Positions 4,212 to 46,397 of a stretch of 64,000 nucleotides of DNA are shown in pieces. Source of the stretch: a virus. Its lineage: Duplodnaviria; Caudoviricetes. Position numbers and translations under genes: made by a program. Location: positions 69,796 through 133,795 of the IMG/VR virus record IMGVR_UViG_3300020112_000918. The stretch is one strand, 5' to 3'. The notes under the pieces are model-generated. The model ran no database searches. It was not told the DNA's origin and saw nothing but the letters and a program-made list of their open reading frames with translations. The number at the start of each line of letters is the position of its first letter. The first letter of the stretch is position 1.

Positions 4212-4217
4212 AATTCT

Positions 4218-4224: not shown

Positions 4225-4228
4225 CTTT

Positions 4229-5389
4229 TTAGTCTTTGAAAGCTCTAGTCTCAAGAATAGAATCCTTGACAGGTTTTACAGAAGTTCTACACAGAACCAG
4301 TCGAGTAGAAGGACGAGAACTTTCGCCGTTCCAGTTATGATAGCTCTGTTCAATAAGCCAGTTTCCTGAATAAAACTCAGACAGCTGTTCTTCTCCTTCA
4401 GCGTTTAAGCAGTTTACCTTAAGTTCTACAACTTTCCCAGCAACACAGTCAGCGTTAAAAGGAACTATACAAAGAGCCTTATCCAGAACAAACTTCATCG
4501 AAGATGAATAAAGTCCTACGTTGAGTTTTTCGTATTCTACAGCAGGATTAAACTGGCGACCGAAATAAACGTTATGGCACATTTTATTTTCAGACAGCAG
4601 AGGAATTTTGTCTACAGCATCTGCAGCAACTGATTTATCTTCTACTACGAATTCCTGATCAGCGTTAAACACTTTTCCGGAAGTTCGCATATACGGATAT
4701 ACGGAGTTACCTCGCTCATTAAACGGAAGGAAGCCCGTTATTACAGTAGATTCATCATCCTGCTCTGAAAGATTTGCCTTTAGTTCAAAAGAAGCAACTG
4801 CAGAGCTTGTTTCAAGTTTACTTACAGAGCAGAAATGAAGCACGCCTGTAAGATCTCTAAAGAATACATAAGGATTTACTTTCCCGTTATTTGCTGCAGA
4901 AAGAAGTAAATCTTTAGTAACTGCATAAGGGTCTTCAAAAGCGTAAGTAGAGATATTTCCTTTAGTTGCTTCTACATCTAATTCTGACTCGTCTGAAAAG
5001 AGTTCAGAAACACAGTCGCTTATAGGCTTTTCGATAAAAGACAACTTAGGGTTTTCCCGATTCTTAAAATAAGATTCGTGTAAAGCGTAGATCTTTAGAA
5101 CTCCGGACAAACGAGGAGCACTTCCTGCTTCTTTTATAGAGTCTCTACCGACAGAGCACCAATTAGTTTCAAGCAGCTTGTCTGAAGTTCCAAAAACGGT
5201 TTTTAGCTTTATTCCTTCCATAAAAGAGCCATACTCAAGAGCAAGCCCTGACAAGTCTGGATAAACTAGTTCAAAGTCAGGAAAAGGAGAGAAAATAGAA
5301 TCGTGAATCGAGAACCCTATCTCTTTTCGGGATAGGAATTCTGAACTTTCTTCAATAGAAACACTTACCTTAAATTCATCATCAGCCAT
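4229..5389 (-). CDS. baseplate hub / tail protein (gp27/gpD-like)
   Basis: YVFFRDLTGVLHF and C-terminal AGKVVEL...YSGNWLIEQSYH hub-type motifs; lies in the structural module. Confidence 0.6.
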   Translation of the reverse strand: MADDEFKVSVSIEESSEFLSRKEIGFSIHDSIFSPFPDFELVYPDLSGLALEYGSFMEGIKLKTVFGTSDKLLETNWCSVGRDSIKEAGSAPRLSGVLKIYALHESYFKNRENPKLSFIEKPISDCVSELFSDESELDVEATKGNISTYAFEDPYAVTKDLLLSAANNGKVNPYVFFRDLTGVLHFCSVSKLETSSAVASFELKANLSEQDDESTVITGFLPFNERGNSVYPYMRTSGKVFNADQEFVVEDKSVAADAVDKIPLLSENKMCHNVYFGRQFNPAVEYEKLNVGLYSSSMKFVLDKALCIVPFNADCVAGKVVELKVNCLNAEGEEQLSEFYSGNWLIEQSYHNWNGESSRPSTRLVLCRTSVKPVKDSILETRAFKD

Positions 5390-5399
5390 CTAAAGCTCC

Positions 5400-5705
5400 T
5401 TAAGTACGATTCTTAACGTAGAACGAATTTAGGTCACTGTTACTAGGAACATTTAGTTCTGTTCCTGGCGCCATTTCTCTACGAGAACTAATGTTGTTTA
5501 GCCAGAGTATAATATCTTCTGAGTTGTTATTGCCCCGTAAATCTGCAAAGAACAGATCAGGACGGTAGTAATTTTCTTCACGAACTATTACCTGTTCATA
5601 AGGGTCTTTTGCTACAAACTTATCTAAAGGAAGAGAAAGACAGTCGGGGTAAACAGTTCCGTCTGCTTGAGTTTGAGTAGTCATAAAATCGTAACGAGTT
5701 ATCAT
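5400..5705 (-). CDS. baseplate wedge protein (gp53/LysM-like)
   Basis: RPDL....G.....IILWLNNI......PGTELNVP signature. Confidence 0.75.
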   Translation of the reverse strand: MITRYDFMTTQTQADGTVYPDCLSLPLDKFVAKDPYEQVIVREENYYRPDLFFADLRGNNNSEDIILWLNNISSRREMAPGTELNVPSNSDLNSFYVKNRT

Positions 5706-6499
5706 TAGTTATCCTCCCAAGCTCTATTAGAAAAAATAGCCCCTACTGTTTCTTCAATAGGAATATCTTCGTGAATCGGAATTCCTGCGTCAGCTGCAAA
5801 ATCCAGCATAACTTTTTTAGTTATCCAGTAGCGATGACGGTCTTCATTCATTATCCAAGTTCCACAAGGTAAGTCTACTGTAACGGTCTGGATCCTGTTT
5901 TTCTCAAGCCAATCTCTATCTGTAAAGTCCGCATTCATATGCGTTGTTGTAGAGCAAACAACAATGTTCTTCAAAGTCTGTTCAGTTCCGTCTTCAGCTG
6001 TAGTGTCAATGAATGATTCAAGCAGTGTTTCATTAGAATCTGTCCAAAGCATCTTGGAAGTGATATATTGCAAGTCTACGTCTTCCTGACAAACAAGAAT
6101 TGCTGTATAGTTAAAGGTTGCTGGAGTTAAGCGAACTTTACGTCCAAGCTCTTCCATCCACATTCCTTCAACGTTCAGAGCTTGATTAAACCAAGTTCTT
6201 TCGTGACTTGTAGAAGCTGAATCCTGATTAAGCCGAAAAGCACAAAAAGGAAAGTCAAGAACTCCCCCATTTTTATTCCCTTTTCCCTGCTGAACAAGAG
6301 CGTTTACCTGCTGCTGACGTTTACGAAACATAAGGTCGGGAGAAGACCAGACTACTCGAGTCAAATCTCCTCCGAAGAAAGTGTCTGCAAAAAAGCGATA
6401 CACCGCAATGTTAGTAGAGAGGATATTGTTGTAAAACGGTTTTTCAAACCATCCTTTTCCCTTCTGCTGGAAAAAGCTGTCATCTCTTTTGTCAGCCAT
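5705..6499 (-). CDS. putative tail completion/terminator protein
   Basis: Size, position and DFPFCAF...TPATFNY pattern; inferred. Confidence 0.45.
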   Translation of the reverse strand: MADKRDDSFFQQKGKGWFEKPFYNNILSTNIAVYRFFADTFFGGDLTRVVWSSPDLMFRKRQQQVNALVQQGKGNKNGGVLDFPFCAFRLNQDSASTSHERTWFNQALNVEGMWMEELGRKVRLTPATFNYTAILVCQEDVDLQYITSKMLWTDSNETLLESFIDTTAEDGTEQTLKNIVVCSTTTHMNADFTDRDWLEKNRIQTVTVDLPCGTWIMNEDRHRYWITKKVMLDFAADAGIPIHEDIPIEETVGAIFSNRAWEDN

Positions 6500-6507
6500 A
6501 GGTTCTC

Positions 6508-6846
6508 CTAGTCAGCTAAAACAAGGTCGATTAAATCTTTCTTGTTCAATTCTGATATATCTCTCTTATCGTATCCTTTGTTAATCAGATAGATTTTAAG
6601 GTCAGCTACAGTTGCTTTTTCAACAAAAGCCTGACGATCATCTGGAGCTGCTTCTTCCTGTCTTTCCATAGGAGCTACTGTTTCATAAGCCCCGTTCTTG
6701 AATTCTGATACTTCAATCTGAGGATTCTTTGAACACTGCTTAAACAGTGAAGTTGAAACAAACTCATTCCACCTGTCTGAAATGAGCTTACCATCGATAA
6801 AAACTCCTCCAGGGATAGAAGTTCTTGCTTTAAAAATTGTTTCCAT
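6508..6846 (-). CDS. protein with a C-terminal HeH/Rho-N-like motif
   Basis: TVADLKIYL...G......LNKKDLIDLV. Confidence 0.55.
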   Translation of the reverse strand: METIFKARTSIPGGVFIDGKLISDRWNEFVSTSLFKQCSKNPQIEVSEFKNGAYETVAPMERQEEAAPDDRQAFVEKATVADLKIYLINKGYDKRDISELNKKDLIDLVLAD

Positions 6847-6847
6847 T

Positions 6848-7906
6848 TTAATCTCCTTGTGTCTTGCCTTTTCCAGCAGACTTTTTTGGCGTAGTTGTAT
6901 ATTTTACAGGTGCGGAAACATTCTGTCCCTGAGCCTGTGCCTGAACTACCTTCTTAGCAGAAGCATAATTAAAGGTGAATCCTGCATCGAGAATTCCCAT
7001 AGCCTTAAGCTGTTTAGATACCTTAGAGGTCATGTTGTTCAAGAAGAAATCAATGTTCATTATCAAAGCTGTCATATGCTTAGACAAGAAGTATTCTCCT
7101 CCGTGAATTTTATTCCAGTGCTTCGGAGGAATAGTAACTTCATAAATTGAAGCATCTAACTGACTTAGATTATAGGCGAATCCTTGCCAGTAAAGAGAAG
7201 GATCGTCATCCCACATCTTTATAGCACAAGCAAGCATCGCATCTTTTAGGTCTGCTGGTGTAAAAGGCTGACCATCTGGCATAGTATCTAAAAGCCATGT
7301 AAAGAACTTTTCCATGCGAAAAGTAATTCTGTAAGTTCCTGAAGGATTACGAATAAGGTTGAATCCGTTTGAAGGATCAGTTCTATATTTGGTTGTCCCG
7401 TCAGGAGTCACCTGAGACAAAAAGTCAAACTCAGCATAGTCATTAGCTCTATCTAAGTGGGAAGAAACTAATTTAACGTATTTTATTTCGTTTCCTCCCC
7501 CAAGGAGCTTTTTACGAGCTTTACGGGTTGCCTGAACTCTGGCAGAAACAGCTGCTGCTGACTTGAAATCTTTCAGATTCATGTCTTCTACAAGAATAGA
7601 AGAACTTTCTCTTAAGAACATCTGCTGGAATCTACCTGACAAGTCAATACGAATAAACAAAGCACCAAGAGGGTCTCCGTAGAATTGTTCAATAGGAAGA
7701 ATGTTTGTTAAAGACATTCTTTTTCCATAACGGAAAGGAATTACAGAAGCAAACTCATGTCTGTGACACGCTACAGAAGTAAGAGGAATGTCTGGTTTTC
7801 TACTATCAAAGAAAACAAAGTAGATACGAGTAGGAGCTCCTATAAGACGAGCGTAATATACCTTTTCAATGTTCTCTAAGCCGAGTTCCTGTTTGAGATT
7901 ATTCAT
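6848..7906 (-). CDS. hypothetical protein with a degenerate SWIM-like region
   Basis: WDDDPSLYWQG...LSKH resembles CxCxxF...CKH with the cysteines lost. Confidence 0.5.
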   Translation of the reverse strand: MNNLKQELGLENIEKVYYARLIGAPTRIYFVFFDSRKPDIPLTSVACHRHEFASVIPFRYGKRMSLTNILPIEQFYGDPLGALFIRIDLSGRFQQMFLRESSSILVEDMNLKDFKSAAAVSARVQATRKARKKLLGGGNEIKYVKLVSSHLDRANDYAEFDFLSQVTPDGTTKYRTDPSNGFNLIRNPSGTYRITFRMEKFFTWLLDTMPDGQPFTPADLKDAMLACAIKMWDDDPSLYWQGFAYNLSQLDASIYEVTIPPKHWNKIHGGEYFLSKHMTALIMNIDFFLNNMTSKVSKQLKAMGILDAGFTFNYASAKKVVQAQAQGQNVSAPVKYTTTPKKSAGKGKTQGD

Positions 7907-8417
7907 GCTTTTCTCCTTCGCACGCTTTCTGGATAGCTTCAGCTACGCTGTCGTCTACTTCCTTGAGCGAAGTAATTGGAGCACACATAAACTTACGCCA
8001 AATAAGTTCTGATGAGAAAGAACCTTTCTGGTCAAGAACTTTAAAGATAACTGGCATCTTGTTTCCGTATTCATCTGGAGTAGTGAAAAAGAAAATGTCC
8101 CCTGTCTCGATCTTATCTTCCCACTTGAAGTAGGCTTCAGTAGGAAGAATATCGTAAAAGTAAAGTGCCGAAGTATCTACGTCTGCAGAACCGTTAAGCT
8201 CTCTAAGACGAATCAAAGGCATCTCACCAGGAGGAAAATTCAAGACTGCGTTTGTAAACAGCGAGTCAATTACTGTGTCTTGCGATCCACCCCAAACATC
8301 ATACTCCCGATGGATTCTTACGATATCCATCTGTCTACCTTGTGTGAAAACATGGTAGTCGTGAAGTTTGCGAATTGCTTTTGCTTGAGATGAGTTAAGT
8401 TTTTCGTATGCACCCAT
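7899..8417 (-). CDS. putative neck / head-closure protein
   Basis: Size, structural context, ETGDIFFF motif. Confidence 0.45.
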   Translation of the reverse strand: MGAYEKLNSSQAKAIRKLHDYHVFTQGRQMDIVRIHREYDVWGGSQDTVIDSLFTNAVLNFPPGEMPLIRLRELNGSADVDTSALYFYDILPTEAYFKWEDKIETGDIFFFTTPDEYGNKMPVIFKVLDQKGSFSSELIWRKFMCAPITSLKEVDDSVAEAIQKACEGEKHE

Positions 8418-8441
8418 GTTATAAATAGGTGCTTACGATGT

Positions 8442-10744: not shown

Positions 10745-10817
10745 AAATTAAATAGGGAATAAAAACGCCCTCTCACTTGCGCAAGAGGGCTGGAGGATAA
10801 AAGCCTAAGAAATGCTA

Positions 10818-14336: not shown

Positions 14337-14389
14337 AAACAAATAGGCTCGACCCTTTCGAGCCGAGCCTGTAAAGTTGAAAACTTATT

Positions 14390-19600: not shown

Positions 19601-19624
19601 AAAGAAATAGGTAGGCGAACAGGG

Positions 19625-30251: not shown

Positions 30252-32551
30252 GCCGATTTCTCCTCGCTACTTTCTTCTGTAGCAGCTTTTGATAGTTTTA
30301 ATTCCAGATATTCAATAAGGTCGCTGATAATACCAGAATCTCTTCTAGCTGAGTAGCTTTCCACTAAAAGTTTTACCAAAGGGTATTTTTTATAAAGTGG
30401 ATAAACTATAGAACTTTCCAGCTCAATGCTATAAGCATTTGTGGAAGTGCTCTGTAAAATAGACTGAACCTTTGCTTGATAAGCAGCATCCAGTTTAATG
30501 TGATCCATGCTTACAAATGGTCTGAGTCGTTTTCCTACCTTGAAGTTCGATTTAGACCAAGCTGTAAGACGGTCAAGAGTTTCCTGTTCAAGCCCTATGC
30601 GAGTTATCAAGTTAGCTGCAAAAAGCTCTTTGATGAAAGGAATATACTGCTCACTAGAATAGTCTGTGTTCCACTCCAAGTGGGCTTCATAAGAATCGAT
30701 GTAAGCCTTTGCTCCTTCTACGATAATGTCTTCAAACTTAGGAAGAATATTTCTGTAAGGATGCTTTTCTGGCAGGAGAAGAACTCTTGCTGTTCCATAA
30801 AAAGACTCGTTTGTTTCTTCAACGTGCTTAGAAACATATCTTTCTACAACAAGCCCGTAACGATCCGCAAACTGAGAACGTCCTTTCTTGTATTCAAAGT
30901 CATAAAGCTGTCCTTCAAACTCAACTTTATAGGCTTTGTCTGCTGGAATCCAGAAAGTATAGTCCAATTCACTCTGAGTCGGGTTATTTGTGTCATCAAA
31001 GATTCTTGATGTTCTCTGAACTCCCCCTCCTGGAAGAGAGATTGTTGTCAAAGCAGAAGTAGAAACAGCTGCGTTGGACTTCCAGCGTGTTTGCACTCCT
31101 ACGGAACTCTTTGGCAAATCGTTTACATTCTTTATGGCTTTTAAGTCCTCTTCTGAAAGAAAGGCTGTTGAATCTCGGAACAAGATGTATGCTACAGGTC
31201 CTATCTGGATTGGTGCTCCTAAGTTCTCAAGAATACGGCACTTCTTTTCGAAAGAAAGATAAGCCCCGTCCCAGTAAGAGAAAATCGGGAAATTGTTAGA
31301 AATAATAGCAGCTACTGTTGTTTCCTTAATCAAGACCACAGATGCCTGACTGCAGTGATTTGCTATTTTTACGCAGCGAACGTTCTTTACAAGAGATTTT
31401 GCCCAGTCCTTAAAAGCAAGGTGGTTCAAATACCCCTTGAAATGCAGATTGTCAAACTTGGAGTGGTTCTTGATAATCGTTGGTGCTGATACCCAGAGGT
31501 TGTAGAGTTTCAAATAAGAATTCTGAGCCTGACGGAACATGTCATTGATAGAGTCAACTACTTTGTGACGATATGTAAGACACAAAATAGAACCGAGCTT
31601 TTCCTTAGTTTCTGACGTAAATGAAAGTCGTTCACGAGATGGCTGAGGCATAAAAGTTCCGTTTGGAACTTTGATAAATCCTTCAAAGCAAACATTACGG
31701 GGCAGATTTTCCTTTACTTTAAAAGAGCCGGAATCTTCTTTTTCAATAAAAGATTCAAAGGCTTCTTTACATTCATCCTGAGAGATTGTATAAAGCACGT
31801 TTCCTTGAACTACTTTAAGGTCACTTCCCCAAGACTTGTCAGAAACAGTCAGGTCTATTTCTCCGAAGTTCTGTCCAAGATAGTCAGCTGTAGACCAGTC
31901 TGTGTTTGAGTTTTCAAGGTCGCTAAGCCAGTAAGACTCTGCGTTCAGAACTTCAACACGGTCTTTCATCCACTTGAGAATGCGTAAACTTTTTGAACGG
32001 AATTCGTCTATGTCAGAAAGTTTTACAGCATAGAAAACTTCAAGACCACTTGGTTCGTCTGTTTCACATTCAGTTAAGAGAGTTTTGCGAGGTTTACCGT
32101 TTTCTACAAACATTGTGTAGTAGTAAGCCTTTCCCTCATAGTAAGAAGTTACATTAAAGGTGTTTGTGTATGCGAAAGGAGATTTAGCTCCAATACCAAA
32201 AGCTCCGATGTAAGCGTTACTTCCTTCTTTAGAAGAATACCCGTAAGTAGTATACATAGTCATCTGATCAGGAGCAAGTCCTTTTCCAAAATCTCTTACT
32301 CTGAATTCAGGTTTTTCATGAGACGGGATTGTTACCTGGAACTTACGTGTCTGTCCTGCTTCTACGTGAGCATCAAATGCGTTACAAGTTATTTCACGAA
32401 TTCCAGCTGCAGTTTTATCTGCGTAAACACTATCAGACAAAAGCATAAATAGCTTTTCATCTGCCTTTATCTGGAACTCATCAGAAGTTCCGACTGAATT
32501 TTCGACATGTGTGCCTTTCTCTGTATTAAAAACCATATGTGGTTCCTCCAA
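30248..32551 (-). CDS. rIIA: rIIA-like protein (GHKL ATPase N-terminus)
   Basis: IREITCNAFDAH, VRDFGKGL, GAFGIGAKSPFAY; adjacent to rIIB. Confidence 0.92.
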   Translation of the reverse strand: MEEPHMVFNTEKGTHVENSVGTSDEFQIKADEKLFMLLSDSVYADKTAAGIREITCNAFDAHVEAGQTRKFQVTIPSHEKPEFRVRDFGKGLAPDQMTMYTTYGYSSKEGSNAYIGAFGIGAKSPFAYTNTFNVTSYYEGKAYYYTMFVENGKPRKTLLTECETDEPSGLEVFYAVKLSDIDEFRSKSLRILKWMKDRVEVLNAESYWLSDLENSNTDWSTADYLGQNFGEIDLTVSDKSWGSDLKVVQGNVLYTISQDECKEAFESFIEKEDSGSFKVKENLPRNVCFEGFIKVPNGTFMPQPSRERLSFTSETKEKLGSILCLTYRHKVVDSINDMFRQAQNSYLKLYNLWVSAPTIIKNHSKFDNLHFKGYLNHLAFKDWAKSLVKNVRCVKIANHCSQASVVLIKETTVAAIISNNFPIFSYWDGAYLSFEKKCRILENLGAPIQIGPVAYILFRDSTAFLSEEDLKAIKNVNDLPKSSVGVQTRWKSNAAVSTSALTTISLPGGGVQRTSRIFDDTNNPTQSELDYTFWIPADKAYKVEFEGQLYDFEYKKGRSQFADRYGLVVERYVSKHVEETNESFYGTARVLLLPEKHPYRNILPKFEDIIVEGAKAYIDSYEAHLEWNTDYSSEQYIPFIKELFAANLITRIGLEQETLDRLTAWSKSNFKVGKRLRPFVSMDHIKLDAAYQAKVQSILQSTSTNAYSIELESSIVYPLYKKYPLVKLLVESYSARRDSGIISDLIEYLELKLSKAATEESSEEKSA

Positions 32552-32593
32552 AAATTAAAATTCCGGAGGAAACCAAAAAGGTTTAATTTATTT

Positions 32594-34852
32594 TTAAGAA
32601 AAACTCTTTACAGTTAATCCAAGTTTAGCTAAGTTCTTTTCCATAGACTTCTTGAAGGCTTCGTCGTAGTCGTCTCCCTTAGGGCTTTCTACAATAAGAC
32701 CTTCTCCCAGATAGTTATTCTCAAAAGGAACATCCAGTTCACGATTATAAATGTACCGAGGAACAGTAAGCTCTTCGTGAACAAGAGTGTATACGTTTTC
32801 TGCACAAACGTCTCCAACGTCCTTTGCGTTGGTTCCCATCATCGACAGCTCCCAGTCATTAGTATCAAGAACATTAACTACCTTACCGATTGTATGATCA
32901 ATCTTTTTACGCCCCTTTTCTGTAGAAGATTCCTGAATACACTTTAAGTTGTTTTTCAAGAAAATATTTCTTCCGGCTTTTACGTTTCCGATGTTAATCA
33001 GAGCTACGTAAGTAAGGTAAACATTTATTTCAGTATCAGCAGAAAGGTTAGCTACATTAAAGTTCTTTTCCTTTAGATAAGCAATAGTTGCGTGAGACTG
33101 GAAATTATCGAATGTAATCTTGAAAAGATTAATAGAACCCTTATCTCTCAGATCTTCAGGGAAAGTTCGGATGGCATCCAAATTGATACGCCCCTTTCCT
33201 GGAGAAATAGCGATAGTAAAATCGTGAACAGCAACTTTTTCATTATTTACTGCATCCCATTCCCAGTGAGACATACCAATACCGAGAACGTCTCCTGTTT
33301 CCGCAAGGTCGAATGAAAGAACTCGAAGAGCTTTTGGTGCACGGTAAAACTCGTAACGTTCCCCTACCTTTATAAAGAACTTATCACGAATCTGATTCCA
33401 GATAAGCTCGGCTGCTGGCTTAGTAGAAGGAGCCATGATATAAGTAGGAATATTCTTAAGCTGCGGAGTAAAGATATCTTCAATAAGCTGACGCTCACGA
33501 ATAAGTTTATCGAGAGAACCACTTGGCCAACCACCTGTGTTCTTAACAGCACGAGTAGTCGATTCCATGTATTCTCGTTTAAGGTCGATTGGAACCCAAA
33601 TAACTTCTTCTTTAGGATAAAGAGCAAGATTGTCTTCGTTGAGAACTTCTGCAGGAGAGGATGCTGATCCTCGGAATACTGGAAACTTTTCGCCAGTTTC
33701 AGCGTAAATCGGATAAAGTTCCCGCACACGCTTTCTGCTCGGATCTCGCTCATACATTTCCCACTGACTTCCTGTGCTGACGAAGTTTTCAGGGTCTTTC
33801 TGAGCCTGCCCCGTAAATATGTATTTATCGATAGGACTGACATCAAGGTCGTTAGGAGAAGAGTCAAGAACCGTTCCGCACAAATACTTATTACCGAAAC
33901 GAGACTTAATACGTTCCTTAGAATCCATGTAAATACGCCAGATATAATCAGTAGAGAACCCACGATCGATAAAGAAAGAAATTTCTGACATAGTTGACTG
34001 AATCATGTTCAAACCGAGCAACTGATGAGGTCCGGAAGCAACAATGTAGTGAATGTCATTAGGGAACTGCAAAACACCGATGCGGGATGCTGTTGTCCAA
34101 CAAATCTTGTCTGGGTATTTTTTCTGATGATTTTCAAGCTGCTCTTCTACTTTTACACGATGGAATTTCGGAGCAGTTGTCAATATCTGAATAAATGGCT
34201 GGAGCAAAAGCTGCTTAGCCTTATCTTGAGAGAACGAAATAAATGCTTGAACTATCGAAGTAGAAGCTGCCAAGCCAAAGTACTTCTTCGGATTGCGCAT
34301 CAAGAACAGGTTAATAGTAACAAACAGGTTGTGCATTGCTGAGATAGTCGAATTGTGTGTAATAAGTCCATTGTTTGTAAAATATAGTCCGTCTTTTGAG
34401 TCTACAGAAATGCAAGAGGTTTCTTCCTGATAAAGAGCTTTTCTTATGCAAAGAATAGTAACTCCTTCATCTTCTGCTGTTAAGAGTTCATCAGAATCTG
34501 AAATCGCAGGGTCTTTTACATAAGCATCGTAGCAGTGTTCATTTTCTGGATAAGAAGTCATCCAAATAAATTTTAGAAAAGGAACTCTTTCCCTCAGCCA
34601 CTCAGTAGTAACGCTTTCCCAGAATAACTGCCCATTAAGTTTTCTAAAAGAAACGACATTTATGTGGTCTTTATGAGTTCTTAGAACTCTTCCATCAGAG
34701 AGAAAAATATTATATACGTCTGTCAAGCCTTGAGGAAAAATAGCTTTTATGGGACGTTTACCTTTAGGAGTTAGAACTTCATCTCCTATAGCCAAGTCCC
34801 CATTACGCTTATAGACAAAACGCTTAGATTCTTTTACGGAAGATATTTTCAT
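32594..34852 (-). CDS. terL: terminase large subunit, C-terminal part, preceded by most of a split intein
   Basis: Intein blocks up to ITHN, then ST completing Walker A; nuclease motifs SFDLAETGD, ITFDNFQS, KDVGD. Confidence 0.88.
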   Translation of the reverse strand: MKISSVKESKRFVYKRNGDLAIGDEVLTPKGKRPIKAIFPQGLTDVYNIFLSDGRVLRTHKDHINVVSFRKLNGQLFWESVTTEWLRERVPFLKFIWMTSYPENEHCYDAYVKDPAISDSDELLTAEDEGVTILCIRKALYQEETSCISVDSKDGLYFTNNGLITHNSTISAMHNLFVTINLFLMRNPKKYFGLAASTSIVQAFISFSQDKAKQLLLQPFIQILTTAPKFHRVKVEEQLENHQKKYPDKICWTTASRIGVLQFPNDIHYIVASGPHQLLGLNMIQSTMSEISFFIDRGFSTDYIWRIYMDSKERIKSRFGNKYLCGTVLDSSPNDLDVSPIDKYIFTGQAQKDPENFVSTGSQWEMYERDPSRKRVRELYPIYAETGEKFPVFRGSASSPAEVLNEDNLALYPKEEVIWVPIDLKREYMESTTRAVKNTGGWPSGSLDKLIRERQLIEDIFTPQLKNIPTYIMAPSTKPAAELIWNQIRDKFFIKVGERYEFYRAPKALRVLSFDLAETGDVLGIGMSHWEWDAVNNEKVAVHDFTIAISPGKGRINLDAIRTFPEDLRDKGSINLFKITFDNFQSHATIAYLKEKNFNVANLSADTEINVYLTYVALINIGNVKAGRNIFLKNNLKCIQESSTEKGRKKIDHTIGKVVNVLDTNDWELSMMGTNAKDVGDVCAENVYTLVHEELTVPRYIYNRELDVPFENNYLGEGLIVESPKGDDYDEAFKKSMEKNLAKLGLTVKSFS

Positions 34853-36171
34853 TTAATCCTCTTGACAGTCCAGCCTACTCTAAATCCTTCAGGGACAGGT
34901 TCATCTTTTCGTATATAAGTGTTTATAGTGCCATTCGTTATACCAATTTTTCCTTTATTTTGAGAAGATTGTCCTTTGTGGGAGTCAGAAAGTTTTTTCT
35001 TATATTCAGGCTGCTGGTATAAGGCTTTCATAGTTTCGCTAGATTTTCGTTTAGCTTCTTGGTTTGGAAGTCTCCCTGCCTGAAAACCTTCTGGACAAAT
35101 TTCACAAAGAATTTCTGTTTCTCCATCTGTAAACCAATGGTATCTATCTAGGTTAGATTCCTTCCACTTCCAAGACTGCCCAGCAACTGTTTTACTAGCA
35201 GAGCCTAGTTCCCAGCCTTCTTTAAGAAATTCTTCTACTTGTTCGATTTTAACACATTTTCTTTCTGAACCTTTATGCATCCACTTAGTTCCTAAGGTAG
35301 AATGAACTACTCTTGTTTTCATAGATTTTCTAAAAATGTCAGAAACATACATCCCTAAAGAGTACCCTGCTTCTAAGTATGAATTAATTTCATTAGGATA
35401 AACATAGATATTCTTTGTCCCCTTATGCATCCACTTCTTACCAGTAGGGTCTGAAAAAACTCTGCCCTTTTTCCAACCAGCTTTTTTGTAAAATTCCCAT
35501 TCATCTATAAAAATCTTTTTAGATTTCTCTCCTTTCTTAGAAACGAAAAACATCTCTTTTTGTAGAGAATTACTTAATTCAAAAGACTCCATAGCTATAT
35601 CCAAATTCGCATAAAATTCTGTATCGCTTTTCAGAGAATCTAAATTATCAAACTCTACTAGACCAGAAGTTCTGTAAGCTGCTAGATAGTTACAGTAAGC
35701 GTATCTTAATTGTCCTTGTTTATGTTGTTCCTTAGCTCTAAGATAGTGAGCCTTAATGTGAAAATACAGGGGCAAAGAAATAATATTCTCTTTTAAATCC
35801 TGCCCTCCTTCACATCTAGGAATTATATGATGTCTATTAATAAAGATTTCGTTTTCTCTATAGAAGTCTTCTGAAAACTGCTTAAAAAAGGAAATCAGTT
35901 CTTCATAGTTCTCAATCTCAAAAGCCTTTTTAAACTCGCTAAAATGGTTTGCCCGATATTTCATCATACATAAATAGGCTATTTCATAAGGAAAGTCTAT
36001 AGTGTCTAATTCCCTATTCCTAATTTCTCTTGCCCTGATTACCTGCCACTCAGAGTTTTCCTGAATAAGAATCTTTTCTTCTGGGCGGAAAATAAGACTT
36101 TCGCAATTTTCGAAATTGAACTCTAAAACGTCTTCTTCATCTACTGCTACGGGTGTAGATACAGGGAGAGC
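34352..36171 (-). mobile_element. split Ala1 (class-3-like) intein with an HNH endonuclease, inserted in the TerL Walker A
   Basis: GIGK|ALPVSTPV ... GDLAIGDEVL ... THKDH ... SCISVDSKDGLY ... ITHN|ST. Confidence 0.85.
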
Positions 36172-36555
36172 TTTTCCAATACCAATAGCGTTAGCAAGAA
36201 CTAGATGACGGTAAGGAGAGTCATAGTTCCAGAACGCTTCAAGAATCTCTCTTGCATGAACGAACAAACTTTCTGCCTGAGGACCGAGCCACTCTTCTGA
36301 AAGAAATTCATGGATTGTTGGTGGCTTAGACTTGTAGTTGATCCTCCAAGAGTCCAAGAGTAAAAGTTCTTTCATATTGCTAGAAAGCATAGGATTATTC
36401 AATATAAGCTGCAAGCCTTTCTGGATCTCAGGGTCGGATAAACGTTGAAAGTCCTGTCTATCAGCGACAGAATCGTCTCCCTGGATCAAGTCTTTTATGA
36501 GAAAAGGATTGTCATTTGGATTTTCATAGTCTGTCTTAGGTACAATTATTTCCAT
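34849..36555 (-). CDS. terL: terminase large subunit N-terminal part + intein N-fragment + HNH endonuclease with NUMOD-like repeats
   Basis: PPTIHEFL...LVLANAIGIGK; RHHIIPRCEGG...NIISL...HIKAH; repeated KWMHKG/WFTDG/ITNG units. Confidence 0.85.
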   Translation of the reverse strand: MEIIVPKTDYENPNDNPFLIKDLIQGDDSVADRQDFQRLSDPEIQKGLQLILNNPMLSSNMKELLLLDSWRINYKSKPPTIHEFLSEEWLGPQAESLFVHAREILEAFWNYDSPYRHLVLANAIGIGKALPVSTPVAVDEEDVLEFNFENCESLIFRPEEKILIQENSEWQVIRAREIRNRELDTIDFPYEIAYLCMMKYRANHFSEFKKAFEIENYEELISFFKQFSEDFYRENEIFINRHHIIPRCEGGQDLKENIISLPLYFHIKAHYLRAKEQHKQGQLRYAYCNYLAAYRTSGLVEFDNLDSLKSDTEFYANLDIAMESFELSNSLQKEMFFVSKKGEKSKKIFIDEWEFYKKAGWKKGRVFSDPTGKKWMHKGTKNIYVYPNEINSYLEAGYSLGMYVSDIFRKSMKTRVVHSTLGTKWMHKGSERKCVKIEQVEEFLKEGWELGSASKTVAGQSWKWKESNLDRYHWFTDGETEILCEICPEGFQAGRLPNQEAKRKSSETMKALYQQPEYKKKLSDSHKGQSSQNKGKIGITNGTINTYIRKDEPVPEGFRVGWTVKRIK

Positions 36556-36571
36556 AAACTAAATAGGAAAA

Positions 36572-36596
36572 CAAAAAAGCCCTCCGAAGAGGGCTT
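36572..36596 (-). terminator. intrinsic terminator
   Basis: AAGCCCTC-TTCG-GAGGGCTT plus T-run. Confidence 0.8.
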
Positions 36597-36605
36597 GCAA
36601 TTTCT

Positions 36606-37523
36606 TTAAAAGTTATTAGTAAATTTTTGTCTACAATAACCTCGTTTGTATTTATGGAATTCGCACAACCAGTGCTCAACATCTAACATAAGAGGATGTG
36701 AAACTAGTAAGATTAAATCCTGGCACCCTTCTTGTTTGCATAAATGTGAAATCTGTTCTCTAGAAATACCTGTAGAGTTTTCTATAGTTTTTAAAATGTA
36801 TTCTGAGTTTTCATTCCAAATTTCTCTAAGCTCTTTAATCAAAGGTACATAGTTTTTAGAACTTACTTTAAGGTCAGGATAGACATCTTTTAATCCTCTA
36901 AAAGCTCCTGGACCGTAGCTTGTCCAAGTTAGTAGGTCTGAAAACTTGTCAGGGTCTGAATAAATCCAGTCACTAACTATGCAGTAAGCTGTAAAATCAC
37001 CTATAGCTGCCTCTTTTGACTTCAAAGCGGAAACTGCAGCTTGCGTACTAGTTATATCTCCTGAAAGGACTTTGCTCCATACGAGTTTTACCTGAGAATA
37101 AATTTTCTGCATTTGATGTAAATCATCTTTTTGTCTTCTGTTTACTATAAAAGACCCTGTAGCTAAATTAAACTTTTTATTTTCTGGGCGAGAATTTTCA
37201 AATAGAAATTGAATAAAGGCATTAGGATTTCCTTTATCTGCTTTTTTCAAAAGTTTTTGAGCTAAAGGGTTGCTCTTTAAGTAAGACAAAAGACTAAAGG
37301 AAGAAGACCACCTAAGAAGTCCGATAAGAGCTTTATTCGACAAATTTAAAGACTGAATAAGAAAATAAGTCTTGTCTAAGCATCTGTGCACGTTACAGAA
37401 CTTGTAAGTTGCTAATACAGGGTCGTCTGTAAAAGGAGCCAGAGTTTTCAAAAGGCTTTTTTTTACAAAAATGCTTTCTCTTTCAGAAACTAAGTCTAAA
37501 AATTTCTTTTCTTCATCTGTCAT
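36606..37523 (-). CDS. alpha-glutamyl/putrescinyl thymine pyrophosphorylase-like (aGPT-Pplase1 / amino acid:DNA transferase)
   Basis: ERESI...PFTDDPVLATYKFCNVHR.LD, IGDFTAY.IVSD, GPGA.RGL, DVEHWLCEF.KY. Confidence 0.82.
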   Translation of the reverse strand: MTDEEKKFLDLVSERESIFVKKSLLKTLAPFTDDPVLATYKFCNVHRCLDKTYFLIQSLNLSNKALIGLLRWSSSFSLLSYLKSNPLAQKLLKKADKGNPNAFIQFLFENSRPENKKFNLATGSFIVNRRQKDDLHQMQKIYSQVKLVWSKVLSGDITSTQAAVSALKSKEAAIGDFTAYCIVSDWIYSDPDKFSDLLTWTSYGPGAFRGLKDVYPDLKVSSKNYVPLIKELREIWNENSEYILKTIENSTGISREQISHLCKQEGCQDLILLVSHPLMLDVEHWLCEFHKYKRGYCRQKFTNNF

Positions 37524-38191
37524 TACATAAAGTCCTTTGTGCTTAAGTACATTTCCGAATAAGCATAAGCCTTCGGATAAGTTTTATACATATACTCTTG
37601 TATCTGTCCAGGTGTAAAATTCGGTTTTACTTTGTTAAAAAGCAAGTTCAAGTCAATCGAAGGTGTTGAAAATTTTTCTTCTGACAAAGCAATAAGTTTA
37701 ATGTACTTACTGAAAGGGTCGTCTTTTCCTTCTACTTCGATTTTCCAACCTGCTGTCATCCAGTTTTTAGCCATGGACTTAGTAAAGGCTACCTGTTCAA
37801 GAAGTTTAAAGTCATAGCTTTCCCAATCATCTCCAAGACCGGAGTAGCTGTCAAAAAGTTCTTTTTCAATTTTGTCCTGTTTAGGAGAAGCTGGAGCAAG
37901 GTCTGCAAAGCAATCATAAAAGTCTGCTGAACAGACGTCAAAGTAGCCTTTAACGTTTTTAGGTAAAGCCCCCTTTGCCACAAGAGCTTTGTACTTCGCT
38001 TCAATTACAGACTTTTCTCCGATTTCAAGAAAGCTGTACCCCAGTGTGTCTTCGAAGCAAGGAATTTTCAAACTCTGAAAAATGTTTGCGTGCAATCCTG
38101 CCATAGCATCCGCAGGAGCCATAGGCTCTCCACCTAAGGTAAAAGGCACATAAAGTCGATATTTTGTTGTTTCTTCTCGCAATATAGTCAT
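37523..38191 (-). CDS. hypothetical protein, possible internal head protein
   Basis: N-terminus MTILREE; AAGGAG SD; CCTATTT upstream. Confidence 0.6.
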   Translation of the reverse strand: MTILREETTKYRLYVPFTLGGEPMAPADAMAGLHANIFQSLKIPCFEDTLGYSFLEIGEKSVIEAKYKALVAKGALPKNVKGYFDVCSADFYDCFADLAPASPKQDKIEKELFDSYSGLGDDWESYDFKLLEQVAFTKSMAKNWMTAGWKIEVEGKDDPFSKYIKLIALSEEKFSTPSIDLNLLFNKVKPNFTPGQIQEYMYKTYPKAYAYSEMYLSTKDFM

Positions 38192-43324: not shown

Positions 43325-43340
43325 ACAGAAATAGGGGTAC

Positions 43341-46300
43341 TTAAATTCTCTGCTGGGGTACAGAGTTTACATAATTCTGAATCTCAGTAAGTTCATTATC
43401 TGATAGTGGTCTCCGATACTTTTCTTCTAAAGAAAGACGCATTTCTTTTATAATGGCTTCCTTCGTCGGCTCAGCATAATGAACTTGTTCTTTGTAAGCA
43501 TCACACTTTTCTTTAAAAAGAGTTTCTATACGAATAGCAAGATTCATACCCTTTTCTTCTGTATGGTCACATCCTATAAGGATCTGAAGACACTCTGCTA
43601 AGCCTAACTGTCCAATAGCTAAAGTTCCGTGCTTAAGGGCTGAACGAATTCCTTCTTCTGGAACATAACCTTTCATAGTATTGTTCTGATACATAAACTT
43701 TGCAGAGTTTGGACTCTGAGAAGCAATCCACTCAAAGCGTTCAATAAGAGCGTCTTTTGTTTCGTCTATGTATTTTTCAAGCAGCTTCATAAACACGTCT
43801 ACTACAGCATCTGGATCAGATTTACTCTTCTTCTTAGCAAGCATAGCTACTGTTGGAAGAATGATGGTCTGCGGAGCAATATTTCCTCTTCCATCTCTCT
43901 GCATTGCTGAGCAAAGATAACTATCAGGAACGTCGCCTGTTTCCAGAATCTTTGTAAGCAAATCCAAAAAGTATTCTTTAGAAAAGTTGATATCGTAACC
44001 GTTATTTGTACGGCAATTATGCATAATGATATCAGAGCCAATGAAAGTTCCTGTCTCGGTTCCAATATCATAAGAGTCTACTGGCTCCCAGTGCCAGCTA
44101 ATATCCTCTACTTTTAGACGCAAACCATCTGCTCTGGATAGGAAATCTCCTACTTTTAGGTCTGCTGCTTTAGTAAAAGTCTCTCCCGTCCAAAGAGGGT
44201 GGTCTTCTGTACAAGAAAGACAATAGTGTTTTCCTTGTTCTTCGTAATAGATATGCATCATAAGCGGAGTGTTCAGCTTATCATTTTTGAAAACGTGGCG
44301 TACTTTAACCCATCGATTTTCTCTATCTAAAACTTTTATGTCTTCAGAAGATAAGTCAATTAAGTCCTGAGCAACTGAAGTATCGTGCTGAAATTGAGGA
44401 CGTTTATAAACTTTCTGTCCCTTAACAGTAATAGTCTTAAAGTATTTCTGAGAAGTGCCCTTAAAATTTACGTTAGGAATAGTTTCAATAAACCGTTTTT
44501 CTTCTGCTTCATAGTCTTCTGTATAAAGAAGAACTTCGAATATGTAGTGGGATAAATCTGAGTCACCGAAAGAAATTCCTGCGTCTAAACTTCCTTTAGT
44601 GCGAATATTTCCCCTATGCTCTGTAAGTCTTCGATTTACGTCTTTGCTACTTCCGATATAAGTTACATCTTCAGGAAGATAAGTAATTGCGTAGACTCCT
44701 GCTCCTACTTTTATCCCAGATTTGTGCTGTACCTTTTTATTTCCTGGAATTCTTAACTCTTCTTTATTGAAGAAAACCTTACAAGGTCGTGCTCTTAAAA
44801 CTCCAGTTTTACAGTATTCGTAAAAATCTTTTATAGAGATATCGTAAATACCTTGAGGAAGTTTTACGTACAGATGTTCTTTTCCGTCCAAAGCTCCCAT
44901 TGTAGAAAAGTCTTCTGTTGGCTGAACCTTTTCAGTAACAATAAGTTCCTCATTGTTTACTTCTACGTTAATCTTTTGTCCGATATCAGGATGCTTTTTG
45001 AAAATCTTTACAAGACCTTCGTAGTTTTCTGGAGAAAGGGTTCTGATAACTTCTTTCTTCAAAGCACGATCTTTTTTAATTCCCTCTGACTGAACTGACC
45101 AGTTACAGTTTGCATAGTTCGGATAAAGACGACGAACTGTAGAGTTAAGAGCCTTTTGATAAAATTCGTAATTAGGAGTTCCTTCCTTACCGTTCACATA
45201 TTTATCATACTGAAAAATCTGACAAGGGAAAATAGAAGTTCTTCCATATTTTCCTATACCAAGAATTGATGCACGATAAAAAGTCTCATTAAGAAGTTTT
45301 CCCTCTGGAGAAGTGTTTTTACCAAAGTTAATAGAAGAGAAAGGCAACTGATCCCCACTTCTTGAGAGTAGAGTGTTCAGATTGTGGTAAAGACCTTCGG
45401 CAGCCTGTTTTGTTTCAATGATAGTATCCAGCAAAGCACTCTGATACCATTTGCGACTAATTTTCTGAATTGTTCTACTTCCGAAATAGAAGTCGTCAAA
45501 AGACACATTCCAGTTTTTGAGGAATACCTCTTTATTATCCTGGAGCCACTCTTCAAAGGCATTTCTTACAATGCCGAAATCATCGACATAATCGTCAAGC
45601 ACAAGCTGTAAAAGGTTGAGACTTTTGAAGCTCTTTGAATCTTTAAGGGAAGCAATAATAAAATGCTTCATAAACGATTTTCTTACATAAATCTCAAGAG
45701 TGAAGTCCAGATGAGTGCAAGATACGCCCCCAAACTGCTGTAAAGACTGTGTCTGAACAAGAACTTGAATAAGCTGTTCTGCAGAAGAAATACTTCCAGC
45801 TGGACGGCAGTCTGAATTCTTTACAGTGAATCCGTTTGCTAAAGACTGATCTACAGGAAGACTTAAACAGTTATGTTCTCCAACACACCACTCAGACAAG
45901 TCATGCTCATAGGAAATATTGTCTCTGTGATTTTTTGCTGCCTTAGGTGATATGTAGTAATTCAGAGCAATTTCTTTATTAAGGGAGGAAGCTGCTTCAT
46001 TGTTTCTTCCCCCAAAAGATTCCTCATCTACATTCGCATTCTGGCGTTCATTTTTCTTCGCATCCAGCTTTTCACGATAGTTAGTAATCTCGTCTGTTGC
46101 TCCAAGACGTTCCCGATCTCTACGAGAACGGAATTCAATGTAGCTGCGAGCTACGTCATGCAGTTCTGCTCCCATAAGAGCGTTTTCCACGATTTTGTGA
46201 ATACCTGCAATTTTTATAGGCTTTGTGTCAGACCTTCTGTCTTCTAAACCAAGCCAAACCAATTTCATTACTCTCGCAACGTCTTCGTCGGAAAGTTTAC

Positions 46301-46397
46301 TCTCTGGAACTGTAGAACTTGCTGCTTTCTTGATTGCATTTACAATCTTCGCTTCATCAAAATCCACAATTCGTCCATCTCTTTTCTTTATAGTCAT
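43341..46397 (-). CDS. nrdD: NrdD N-terminal fragment (ATP cone) containing an intein
   Basis: IKKRDGRIVDFD ATP cone, HNCL, QFGG, PFSSINFG, TSIFP, MG|CRT, GRGNI, GQLGLAECL. Confidence 0.93.
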   Translation of the reverse strand: MTIKKRDGRIVDFDEAKIVNAIKKAASSTVPESKLSDEDVARVMKLVWLGLEDRRSDTKPIKIAGIHKIVENALMGAELHDVARSYIEFRSRRDRERLGATDEITNYREKLDAKKNERQNANVDEESFGGRNNEAASSLNKEIALNYYISPKAAKNHRDNISYEHDLSEWCVGEHNCLSLPVDQSLANGFTVKNSDCRPAGSISSAEQLIQVLVQTQSLQQFGGVSCTHLDFTLEIYVRKSFMKHFIIASLKDSKSFKSLNLLQLVLDDYVDDFGIVRNAFEEWLQDNKEVFLKNWNVSFDDFYFGSRTIQKISRKWYQSALLDTIIETKQAAEGLYHNLNTLLSRSGDQLPFSSINFGKNTSPEGKLLNETFYRASILGIGKYGRTSIFPCQIFQYDKYVNGKEGTPNYEFYQKALNSTVRRLYPNYANCNWSVQSEGIKKDRALKKEVIRTLSPENYEGLVKIFKKHPDIGQKINVEVNNEELIVTEKVQPTEDFSTMGALDGKEHLYVKLPQGIYDISIKDFYEYCKTGVLRARPCKVFFNKEELRIPGNKKVQHKSGIKVGAGVYAITYLPEDVTYIGSSKDVNRRLTEHRGNIRTKGSLDAGISFGDSDLSHYIFEVLLYTEDYEAEEKRFIETIPNVNFKGTSQKYFKTITVKGQKVYKRPQFQHDTSVAQDLIDLSSEDIKVLDRENRWVKVRHVFKNDKLNTPLMMHIYYEEQGKHYCLSCTEDHPLWTGETFTKAADLKVGDFLSRADGLRLKVEDISWHWEPVDSYDIGTETGTFIGSDIIMHNCRTNNGYDINFSKEYFLDLLTKILETGDVPDSYLCSAMQRDGRGNIAPQTIILPTVAMLAKKKSKSDPDAVVDVFMKLLEKYIDETKDALIERFEWIASQSPNSAKFMYQNNTMKGYVPEEGIRSALKHGTLAIGQLGLAECLQILIGCDHTEEKGMNLAIRIETLFKEKCDAYKEQVHYAEPTKEAIIKEMRLSLEEKYRRPLSDNELTEIQNYVNSVPQQRI
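44016..44894 (-). mobile_element. Ala1 intein with a GIY-YIG endonuclease (293 aa)
   Basis: MG|ALDGKE...GVYAITY...YIGSSKDVNRRLTEH...CTEDHPL...SYDIGT...MHN|CRT. Confidence 0.9.

Follow-up and report, generated by a model that had tools for sequence, protein, structure and literature searches.

An S1-type split engineered into the Ssp DnaB mini-intein leaves an N piece of 11 residues and places the break at the turn between strands 1 and 2, in an artificial system of class 1 (Cys1). AceL-TerL is an atypically split class 1 intein of the group that also includes GOS-TerL, PolB16 OarG and VidaL. The latter three (VidaL: PDB 6vgv) come from phage or metagenome sources, break early, carry Ser1 or Cys1 and have N pieces that end soon after the break. 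In GOS-TerL, a terminase carries an intein whose break lies close to the intein's own N-terminus, so that only block N1 is missing from the C piece (Dassa et al. 2009, PMC2677866); PolB16 OarG is naturally split into 15 + 168 aa, its 15-aa N piece being functional (PMC10189870). In fractured genes, a split intein divides the host gene and a homing endonuclease lies between the halves (Dassa et al. 2009, PMC2677866): the N piece stops, a spacer of 27-51 nt follows and the nuclease, a gene in its own right of the GIY-YIG or Vsr-like type, overlaps with its 3' end the start of the intein C piece by 6-69 bp. In MIJ3, the nuclease is a free-standing HNH between the halves of the PolB intein (PMC6892783).

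The canonical class 3 P-loop inteins MP-Be DnaB, Msm DnaBi1 (6bs8) and MchDnaB-1 (6rix) are inserted after G-x-GK (PMC2807308, PMC7664689), are contiguous, start with A-Q/L-P-x-S/D-S, carry Trp at B:12 and Cys at F:4 and end in T-H-N before Ser/Thr+1; where canonical class 3 inteins have a nuclease domain, it occupies a conserved position after block B and before block F (PMC6801210). AceL NrdHF (Hoffmann et al. 2020; PDB 6zgq) interrupts an RNR subunit, is probably of phage origin and was reported to be the first class 3 intein that is split in nature (PMC7891396). Its halves, of 98 and 48 aa, result from a break at the canonical site, and a free-standing GIY-YIG gene lies between them. The ingredients of the locus analysed here, in a 64,000-nt stretch of phage DNA (the window, to which all positions refer unless stated otherwise), are already known; we found no description of their combination in the literature. 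We consider it likely that the P-loop of a TerL terminase was invaded by a class-3-type mini-intein, itself invaded by an HNH gene, and that the terminase would be restored by trans-splicing from two proteins.

Gene layout and uninterrupted relatives

The locus comprises two minus-strand ORFs, 34849..36555(-) encoding 568 aa (N gene) and 32594..34852(-) encoding 752 aa (C gene), with the N-gene stop and the C-gene start overlapping as ATGA at 34849-34852. A Shine-Dalgarno (SD) sequence (34857-34862) lies 5 nt upstream of the C-gene ATG, the C frame has a TAA just before this ATG, and the N-gene frame stays open from the extein to the end of the HNH part. A first-pass annotation of this DNA had named the two ORFs, their overlap and the SD, all of which are present (the SD being read as AGAGGA), along with the motifs ALPVSTPVAV after GIGK, GDLAIGDEV, THKDH, SCISVD and ITHN/S (slashes mark junctions), every one of which we found. 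The features are as follows:

36561..36567, minus strand: CCTATTT promoter-like motif, 5 nt upstream of the N-gene ATG
36172..36555, minus strand: N-extein, TerL residues 1-128, ending ..AIGIGK in the P-loop (comparison with L001)
36136..36171, minus strand: intein N piece, N-gene residues 129-140, ALPVSTPVAVDE (block A/N1, Hint strand 1)
35972..35978, minus strand: internal CCTATTT motif, 4 nt upstream of Met197
35968..36135, minus strand: small predicted beta domain, N-gene residues 141-196 (AF2)
34849..35967, minus strand: HNH homing-endonuclease part, N-gene residues 197-568 plus stop (profile matches)
35746..35832, minus strand: HNH core motif, residues 242-270, within the HNH part
34849..34862, minus strand: junction, SD plus ATGA
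34352..34852, minus strand: intein C piece, C-gene residues 1-167 (AF2, structural alignment and invariant residues)
34664-34666, minus strand: block B His63 of the C piece, with Asn65 at B:12
34412-34414, minus strand: block F Cys147 of the C piece
34352-34360, minus strand: Thr165-His166-Asn167, the end of the C piece
32594..34351, minus strand: C-extein, C-gene residues 168-752 plus stop, first residue Ser168 (+1) (TerL comparison)

A terminator-like hairpin (36577-36596) lies just upstream of the CCTATTT motif at 36561..36567.

As in fractured genes, a split intein divides the host gene, the two genes lie on one strand with an endonuclease between the intein halves, and the 3' end of the nuclease overlaps the start of the C piece, here by 4 bp. 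By contrast with those genes, neither a stop nor a spacer sets the endonuclease apart, and the N gene reads straight into HNH.

Two IMG/VR phages (L001, 5638-7779; L002, 3018-5159 of their own sequences) encode an uninterrupted TerL of 713 aa, 93% identical, that reads ..GVGK/STIS.. at this site. Comparison with the uninterrupted TerL places an element of 1820 nt (34352..36171) between GIGK and STIS of the P-loop. The extein boundaries, set by this comparison and not by motif reading, are exact, and the predicted spliced product is therefore 128 + 585 = 713 aa, so that the 128-aa extein and the product length proposed in the first-pass annotation stand, as does its reading of a Walker A motif interrupted by an intein at GIGK/ST. 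The N-extein is 90% identical to residues 1-130 of the L001 TerL and the C-extein 93% identical to residues 122-712 of uninterrupted TerL, the latter extein also matching annotated phage terminases and PHROG 17415. A second lineage repeats this pattern: P0022, which has no intein, shares 97.6% identity with the C-extein of P0002, a split form, and 95% with the N-extein of P0040. The insertion is in frame, at a conserved host site and absent from close homologues.

The intein pieces and the nuclease

The N piece (ALPVSTPVAV..) comprises about 11-12 residues after GIGK and starts with the non-nucleophilic Ala129. The pattern A-x-P-x-S/T-S-x-V-x-V is kept in 10 N-gene clusters, with Ala as residue 1 in all ten; in relatives this residue is Asp (P0071 and P0118) or Pro (L008). 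Mean pairwise identity is higher in the N piece (54%) than in the N-extein (45%). In four contiguous relatives (P0071, P0118, P0055 and P0065), an A/D-x-P-x-S-S-x-V-x-V strand is linked by a loop of 4-20 residues to the same downstream sequence, and because these relatives join strand 1 to the rest at the same site, strand 1 belongs to the split intein. On their own, residues 111-140 of the N protein are disordered in the AF2 model. The C-piece model (AF2, pLDDT 84) is a Hint fold that lacks strand 1 only; its residues 11-167 align to residues 11/12 to the end of Msm DnaBi1 (Z 13.4, rmsd 2.1 A), and they align in the same way to gp41-1, Npu DnaE, AceL NrdHF (Z 11.2) and essentially all other solved inteins (Z 10-14 overall). 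The top structural match was the Prp8 intein (Z 14.3, Foldseek and VIA), and all those listed of about 77 chains at Z>=8 are inteins or Hint domains. The break precedes block N2/B and the C piece contains every block except N1, judged by alignment to solved inteins. A break after only about 10 intein residues, as initially proposed, agrees with both the alignment of model residue 11 to intein residue 11-12 and the contiguous relatives.

In its early break and phage or metagenome source the locus resembles the atypically split class 1 inteins, its C piece of 167 aa nearly equalling the 168 aa of PolB16 OarG. It differs from them in having Ala1, in carrying the initiating nucleophile on the C piece and in an N piece that does not end after the break but runs on into a nuclease, with some 430 more residues (beta domain plus HNH). 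With AceL NrdHF it shares Ala1, Cys at F:4, Thr at G:5, Ser+1, a residue other than Trp at B:12 (Met in AceL NrdHF, Asn in this locus), probable phage origin and a fractured gene with a homing endonuclease; the break after about 11 residues, an HNH nuclease that continues the N piece in frame and the TerL P-loop as host set it apart.

The HNH nuclease that the first-pass annotation had placed on the N half is present and conserved in ten N-gene clusters. It matches the PHROG 655 'homing endonuclease' family (E=6.6e-6), and its match to Pfam HNH is below threshold (E=0.014; 16 bits versus a cut-off of 21.4 bits). The HNH motif HHIIPRCEGG..N..H..H, a beta-beta-alpha-metal motif, is invariant (A1) and aligns with the HNH motifs of PDB chains, and 12 close variants all retain His242, His243, Asn257, His266 and His270. 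Towards its C-terminus the nuclease carries repeats of the W-x-x-K-G / CPEGF..GR type; their earlier description as NUMOD-like finds a NUMOD3 match, but at a sub-threshold level only (E=0.068). The 'Hint-like segment' that had been read after ALPVSTPVAV did not hold up: hhalign gave residues 139-197 a probability of 1.8% against the Hint part, although AF2 predicts a small beta domain there (strands 144-174, pLDDT about 80), which is conserved in the intein-fused family and absent from the free-standing HNH homologues P0049 and P0050. Free-standing nuclease homologues begin at the position matching Met197, and a 372-aa HNH protein may also be made from its own start at Met197, after the phage's promoter-like CCTATTT motif.

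Class 3 affinity and alternative readings

His63, Cys147, Thr165, His166 and Asn167 are invariant, and the +1 residue is Ser or Thr, across 15 diverse members (A2); the same catalytic residues are invariant in 14 close variants, in which variable columns make up 7.8% of the intein versus 10.8% of the extein. Thus, besides the Hint fold, the locus has the block B His, the C-terminal His-Asn and the +1 nucleophile of inteins; block B reads T-H-K-D-H, the usual Thr-x-x-His spacing being altered. Cys147 aligns with the F:4 Cys in the RCVEV(D) motif of the class 3 inteins Msm DnaBi1 (6bs8) and 6rix, and a PDB profile search aligned the family pattern rC..l..GLY..THN with RCVEVDNPEHLY..THN of the same two inteins. 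Among the 137 best scored library homologues, 120 are W-C-T class 3 P-loop inteins with Thr or Ser at +1, mostly inserted directly after G-x-GK. The likeness to canonical class 3 P-loop inteins extends from the start motif through Cys F:4 to the T-H-N end and Ser/Thr+1, and includes the best structural and profile matches. The class-3-like chemistry proposed in the first-pass annotation is consistent with these homologues and with the markers present (no nucleophile at residue 1, which is Ala; Cys F:4; Thr G:5; Ser+1), and the replacement of Trp by Asn at B:12 that it had suspected is indeed seen (Asn65). The TerL subfamily carries N, T, S or H at this position. Deviations at B:12 occur in 6.1% of class 3 inteins, and AceL NrdHF, a split class 3 intein with Met there (MCT triplet), is active and splices efficiently (PMC7891396). 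In MP-Be DnaB, none of the substitutions tested for the B:12 Trp allowed splicing at 30 C, and an Asn substitution spliced at 15 C (PMC2807308).

The missing Trp, together with the unusual spacing of block B, might instead speak for trans-splicing by a route outside class 3, in which the N-junction would be attacked by Ser168 (+1) itself (class 2/KlbA-like), or the reaction would begin at some other residue, and Cys147 would be structural only; the class of AceL NrdHF, too, was uncertain from sequence alone before experiments (PMC7891396). We regard such a route as unlikely, given that Cys147 is invariant and occupies the F:4 position of Msm DnaBi1, that homologues are overwhelmingly W-C-T and that characterised class 2 (KlbA) inteins attack with Cys+1 (PMC2807308) where Ser or Thr stands here. 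It is quite improbable that the terminase pieces work without being covalently joined, the intein halves acting as a non-covalent clasp in the manner of the fragmented NrdA of phage Aeh1: phage genes in pieces whose products assemble without splicing do exist (PMC3045599), but here the break lies inside the P-loop, between a Lys and a Ser/Thr that must be contiguous to bind nucleotide, and a mere clasp would not need His63, Cys147, Thr-His-Asn and Ser+1 to be invariant over deep divergence.

One extra A in AAATGA would fuse the two frames, and the same genome has another intein, in one piece, that carries a nuclease insertion close to its N-terminus, so that a sequencing error, a programmed frameshift or readthrough at the A-rich ATGA junction could in principle yield a single cis-splicing precursor of 1320 aa with the HNH as an inserted domain. 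This appears highly improbable, since dozens of independent assemblies show the 568-aa and 752-aa forms again: clustering at 90% identity groups 72 distinct C-gene sequences and 93 distinct N-gene sequences, drawn from JGI, ENA and Logan assemblies, with 752 aa in 14 of the 15 C-gene members listed and 568 aa in 12 of the 15 N-gene members listed. A few shorter cluster entries may be contig-end fragments. The TAA before the C-gene ATG likewise argues against fusion, as does the junction in two distant phages, which retain a stop/start overlap of ATGA behind an AGGAGG SD (L008) or of 10 nt, also with an SD (L007), that is, overlaps that differ, each with its own SD and no common slippery site. 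No fused protein >994 aa was found, which is weak evidence. Ten N-gene clusters, with identities down to about 38%, share GK/A-x-P-x-S-S-x-V-x-V followed by HNH, and at least nine C-gene representatives begin with M-[QK]-I. As judged from these sequences, the split is not an assembly error. Least probable of all is that the element is decaying and the terminase dead, the phage being defective or using another packaging ATPase. No other TerL was detectable in the 134-kb phage record; because this record is 79% complete (CheckV), a second terminase could lie elsewhere. However, the exteins share 93% identity with intact relatives in protein but only 82% in DNA, which points to purifying selection, neither half has a frameshift or internal stop among the close variants listed, and the design persists across lineages about 38% identical.

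Proposed pathway and meaning

In the trans-splicing reading that we favour, an HNH gene would have entered the intein coding sequence at the turn between Hint strands 1 and 2. The N protein would consist of TerL(1-128), about 11-12 intein residues, the beta domain and the HNH nuclease, and the C protein, made by translational coupling at the ATGA overlap, of 167 intein residues and TerL(129-713). We infer that strand 1, unpaired in the N protein, docks into the Hint fold that the C protein leaves open, whereupon Cys147 (F:4), assisted by His63, would attack the Lys128-Ala129 peptide bond, the acyl group would pass to Ser168 (+1), and cyclisation of Asn167 and an O-to-N shift would release the 713-aa terminase. 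Every catalytic residue would thus reside on the C protein, with the N protein giving only the scissile bond and the docking strand. A tail of some 430 residues on a docking strand of about 11 is without characterised precedent and could hinder assembly. The nuclease would stay tethered to the intein N piece, possibly being made also alone from Met197, and presumably cuts intein-less terminase alleles, such that the 1820-nt element would home as a unit.

More tentatively, and with considerable doubt, we raise the possibility that the reconstituted intein serves as the DNA-recognition module of its own HNH enzyme and that a trans-splicing tag needs no more than the first 11-12 residues. If so, HNH and the 167-aa C piece would make up a two-chain, PI-SceI-like intein-endonuclease, after splicing or even before, that forms only when both terminase halves are made, and the tag would be one without a catalytic residue and without a requirement for Cys or Ser; no natural intein N piece would be shorter, and it would be the first to lack a nucleophile.

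Two terminase genes and their empty site

In the window the terminase (TerL) is divided between two genes that share an ATGA overlap at their junction:

34849..36555, minus strand, TerL N gene (568-aa ORF)
32594..34852, minus strand, TerL C gene (752-aa ORF)

An AGAGGA lies 5 nt ahead of the C-gene ATG and, in the C frame, a TAA stands directly upstream of this start. The terminase is neighboured by a rIIA-like gene downstream and a transglycosylase-like gene upstream, a synteny common to relatives. When the source IMG/VR virus record (133,795 bp, 79% complete according to CheckV) was searched with the TerL of an intact relative, no match was found beyond the N and C gene pieces.

Two other IMG/VR contigs, L001 and L002, encode an uninterrupted TerL of 713 aa that reads GVGK/STIS (the slash marking the insertion point) and that shares 93% protein identity and 82% DNA identity with the two extein parts of the window. 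Because both are uninterrupted at this site, the inserted element can be delimited to 34352..36171 (1820 nt), with N-gene Lys128 on one side and C-gene Ser168 on the other, and its exact excision restores 128 + 585 = 713 aa. A second lineage includes P0022, a 713-aa terminase free of the intein, which shares 97.6% identity with the C-extein of P0002, a split terminase, and 95% with the N-extein of P0040. Terminases that are nearly identical thus either have the whole element or lack it, as expected of a homing element. We also looked for a co-conversion tract: compared with L001 and L002, nucleotide identity falls to 0.67-0.72 near the junction versus 0.82 overall, with similar dips elsewhere, even between L001 and L002. 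The interval between the terminase and the transglycosylase-like gene is a variable region: its two ORFs in the window, 36606-37523 (minus strand, 305 aa, PHROG 2396, function not known) and 37523-38191 (minus strand, 222 aa, without any match), are both missing from L001, and only the second occurs in L002.

The first-pass annotation had described the terminase as fractured into two genes. This break is genuine and old: the 90%-identity clusters (JGI, ENA, Logan) contain 72 different sequences of the C gene and 93 of the N gene. Among the 15 members listed per cluster, 14 C-gene products have 752 aa and 12 N-gene products 568 aa, and several contigs of equal size recur in both clusters. Ten N-gene clusters, 38-57% identical to the window, share the N-extein, the sequence GK/A-x-P-x-[ST]-S-x-V-x-V, a conserved beta segment and the HNH, which upholds the proposal that the endonuclease is carried on the N half; at least nine C-gene representatives start with M-[QK]-I followed by the intein. 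The ATGA junction also reappears in a distant phage with the split design (L008, with an AGGAGG), and in another (L007) the overlap is 10 nt long with an SD of its own. Judged by these junctions, the conserved feature is coupled termination/initiation, not a slippery site. A search for fused long forms revealed no protein >994 aa, which is weak evidence by the search tool's own caveat. In a poorly resolved tree of the C piece, 0 bootstrap trees unite all split forms, and the well-supported branches need no more than one change.

Position of the break and affinity of the intein

An AF2 model of C-gene residues 1-172 (pLDDT 84, residues 1-10 low) retrieved inteins as the sole matches in a fold search. 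Residues 11-167 of this model align with residues 11/12 to the end of Msm DnaBi1 (Z 13.4, rmsd 2.1 Å, 114 residues aligned), and the same pairing was obtained by structural alignment with MchDnaB-1, gp41-1, Npu DnaE, Ssp DnaB, AceL NrdHF and others, so that the C protein lacks strand 1 only. Contiguous relatives with an intein at the same P-loop site (P0071, P0118, P0055 and P0065) read GK/[AD]-Q-P-x-S-S-x-V-x-[VT], then a loop of 4-20 residues, then KYK.L.D..[IV]GD, as after the C-gene start of the window. On the basis of these relatives and of the structural alignment, the break falls in the turn between strands 1 and 2, after ~11-12 intein residues, in agreement with the earlier estimate of about 10. 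On the other hand, the Hint-like segment that had been assigned to the N gene was not recovered: residues 139-197 matched the Hint part with an hhalign probability of 1.8% and had no usable match in the ESM Atlas, and a fold search with the whole N-gene model gave generic helical matches only (Z<8, covering residues 205-350). In that model residues 111-140 are disordered alone and are followed by a small beta domain (strands within 144-174, pLDDT ~80). The stretch of 56 residues that separates strand 1 from Met197 is conserved and is predicted to fold, with no Hint likeness detected.

The C gene matched no family in the local Pfam copy; PF27249 is listed for its protein in the collection. The family profile matches gp41-1 and the class 3 DnaB inteins 6bs8, 6rix and 6riy in the PDB, the family Cys pairing with that of RCVEVD (block F:4) and the T-H-N end with theirs. 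A search of 1.84 billion representatives returned 1246 matches at E<=1e-3. Of the best 150 homologues, 137 allowed both blocks to be placed; W-C-T occurs in 120 of these, and the +1 residue is Thr (96) or Ser (40). Most of these 137 insert directly after G-x-GK of assorted ATPases and start with A-Q-P-L. From the profile matches and the W-C-T homologues we conclude that the intein is homologous to the class 3 inteins found in P-loops (PMC2807308). The nearest homologues lie directly after G-x-GK in terminases, ClpB-like (FTGSTGTGK), helicase-like or AAA-like proteins, which suggests that one class 3 intein family has widely switched exteins among P-loops.

His63 (block B), Cys147, Thr165, His166 and Asn167 are invariant in 15 diverse members, with Ser or Thr at +1, and these catalytic residues are also invariant in 14 close variants. 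Since a metagenome scan for DNA of close intein-bearing relatives (for dN/dS) found none, selection on the intein was judged from protein-level variation: in the 14 close variants, 7.8% of columns are variable in the intein part versus 10.8% in the extein. The intein falls under the working definition of class 3 by Hoffmann, in which residue 1 is not Cys and a Cys occupies C2:4 (PMC7891396). The description of the intein as class-3-like therefore holds for its homology, the F:4 Cys, the T-H-N end and the Ser/Thr at +1 and fails at one classical mark, the Trp at B:12, which is Asn here, as had been noted at first, and N, T, S or H throughout the TerL subfamily. In the AceL NrdHF intein, which is active, B:12 is Met (PMC7891396).

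The nuclease and its possible own start

N-gene residues ~197-568 contain an HNH motif that does not vary across the family and match PHROG 655 ('homing endonuclease'). The HNH motif of the earlier description is present, and its NUMOD-like repeats rest on a NUMOD3 match that, like that to Pfam HNH, is sub-threshold. The free-standing homologues P0049 and P0050 (328 aa) start at Met197-Met198 of the window, and CCTATTT is found 4 nt upstream of Met197. The window contains 22 copies of this heptamer versus 11 expected, 21 of them on the coding (minus) strand. In eight cases, including that of the terminase N gene (36561-36567), a long ORF that has no SD starts with its ATG 4-6 nt after the motif; the others lie 17-63 nt before SD-led starts. 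Examples of the minus-strand sites are:

43329-43335, minus strand, CCTATTT
36561-36567, minus strand, CCTATTT
35972-35978, minus strand, CCTATTT (upstream of Met197)
19605-19611, minus strand, CCTATTT
14341-14347, minus strand, CCTATTT
10750-10756, minus strand, CCTATTT
8423-8429, minus strand, CCTATTT
4218-4224, minus strand, CCTATTT

CCTATTT looks like a phage promoter element, often giving leaderless or very short-leader mRNAs, and from the position of the motif the nuclease may have retained a start signal of its own, from which it may additionally be produced as a separate protein.

The insertion site of nucleases in inteins is otherwise highly conserved, between blocks B and F (PMC6801210), whereas the nuclease of the window lies outside it, in frame with the N piece. 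The NrdD ORF of the window (43341-46397, minus strand) holds a contiguous Ala1 intein (STMG/ALDGKEH to IIMHN/C) whose GIY-YIG-like segment follows soon after block A and not in the interval from block B to block F, which makes it the second intein of this genome with a nuclease close to the N-terminus.

Probable splicing in trans and its implications

The best reading of these sequences is trans-splicing in the class 3 order of events. Cys147 would attack the Lys128-Ala129 bond, the acyl group would then pass to Ser168, and Asn167 would cyclise before an O-to-N shift, every catalytic group being on the C protein. Each step is plausible in light of published split-intein work, including a naturally split class 3 intein that has no Trp in its triplet and splices within minutes (PMC7891396) and a class 1 intein for which a natural N piece of 15 residues is sufficient (PMC10189870). 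Non-covalent assembly of the terminase pieces without splicing fares worse, being at odds with a break inside the P-loop, as does a decaying element, which the invariant splicing residues contradict. A read-through precursor conflicts with the recurrence of the two-gene form and with the differing junction geometries, and an RNA intron finds no support: Rfam (E-value mode, 32000-37500), queried for a group I intron with an HNH ORF, gave only sub-threshold noise, outside the element.

Compared to known systems, trans-splicing here would combine familiar parts. Class 3 P-loop inteins are already known in terminases (PMC2807308; bioRxiv 10.1101/2025.01.02.630785), as are class 1 inteins with an atypical split, among them one from a terminase, whose C piece lacks block N1 only (PMC2677866; PMC10189870), and fractured genes with a nuclease gene overlapping the downstream start (PMC2677866). 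The one known split class 3 intein (PMC7891396), reported in 2020, shares the class 3 affinity in a natural split and is broken at the canonical site, whereas the element of the window is broken after strand 1. A full-text literature search found no description of a class-3-type intein that is broken after strand 1 and has an HNH fused in frame to its N piece.

Related loci extend these observations. In L007 (IMGVR_UViG_3300012983_000095, 3755-8282) the terminase lies in three genes. The first break has the strand-1/HNH design of the window. The second intein begins in the middle gene (AQPLDSKI..HLW) and is completed in the third (QQCIEV..VTHN/S), across a spacer of 161 nt and without a nuclease gene. 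It is of the W-C-T class 3 type, is broken naturally at the canonical site and is thus a further natural split class 3 intein. Many relatives (P0101, 754 aa; P0054, P0055, P0058, P0060, P0065) bear another class 3 intein farther downstream in TerL, and their sequences stop within it, past block B. The N piece of this second intein in P0101 has a long tail ending in CPEGF..GR repeats like those of the window nuclease, and it seems that intein N pieces are fused to nucleases at the canonical break site as well.

The element unites three rarities, probable class 3 chemistry in a natural split, a break after strand 1 and an in-frame nuclease outside the usual site, and its interest lies chiefly in intein mechanism and engineering. 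An N partner would need only a nucleophile-free tag of ~11 residues after any Lys, with all nucleophiles on the C piece, which would suit semisynthetic labelling, provided that the short strand is enough. The element recurs in many uncultured phage lineages beside contiguous and intein-free alleles, which together form a natural series for tracing how an intein becomes fractured by a nuclease gene and how it stays broken. Packaging would hinge on a post-translational ligation within the ATP-binding loop.
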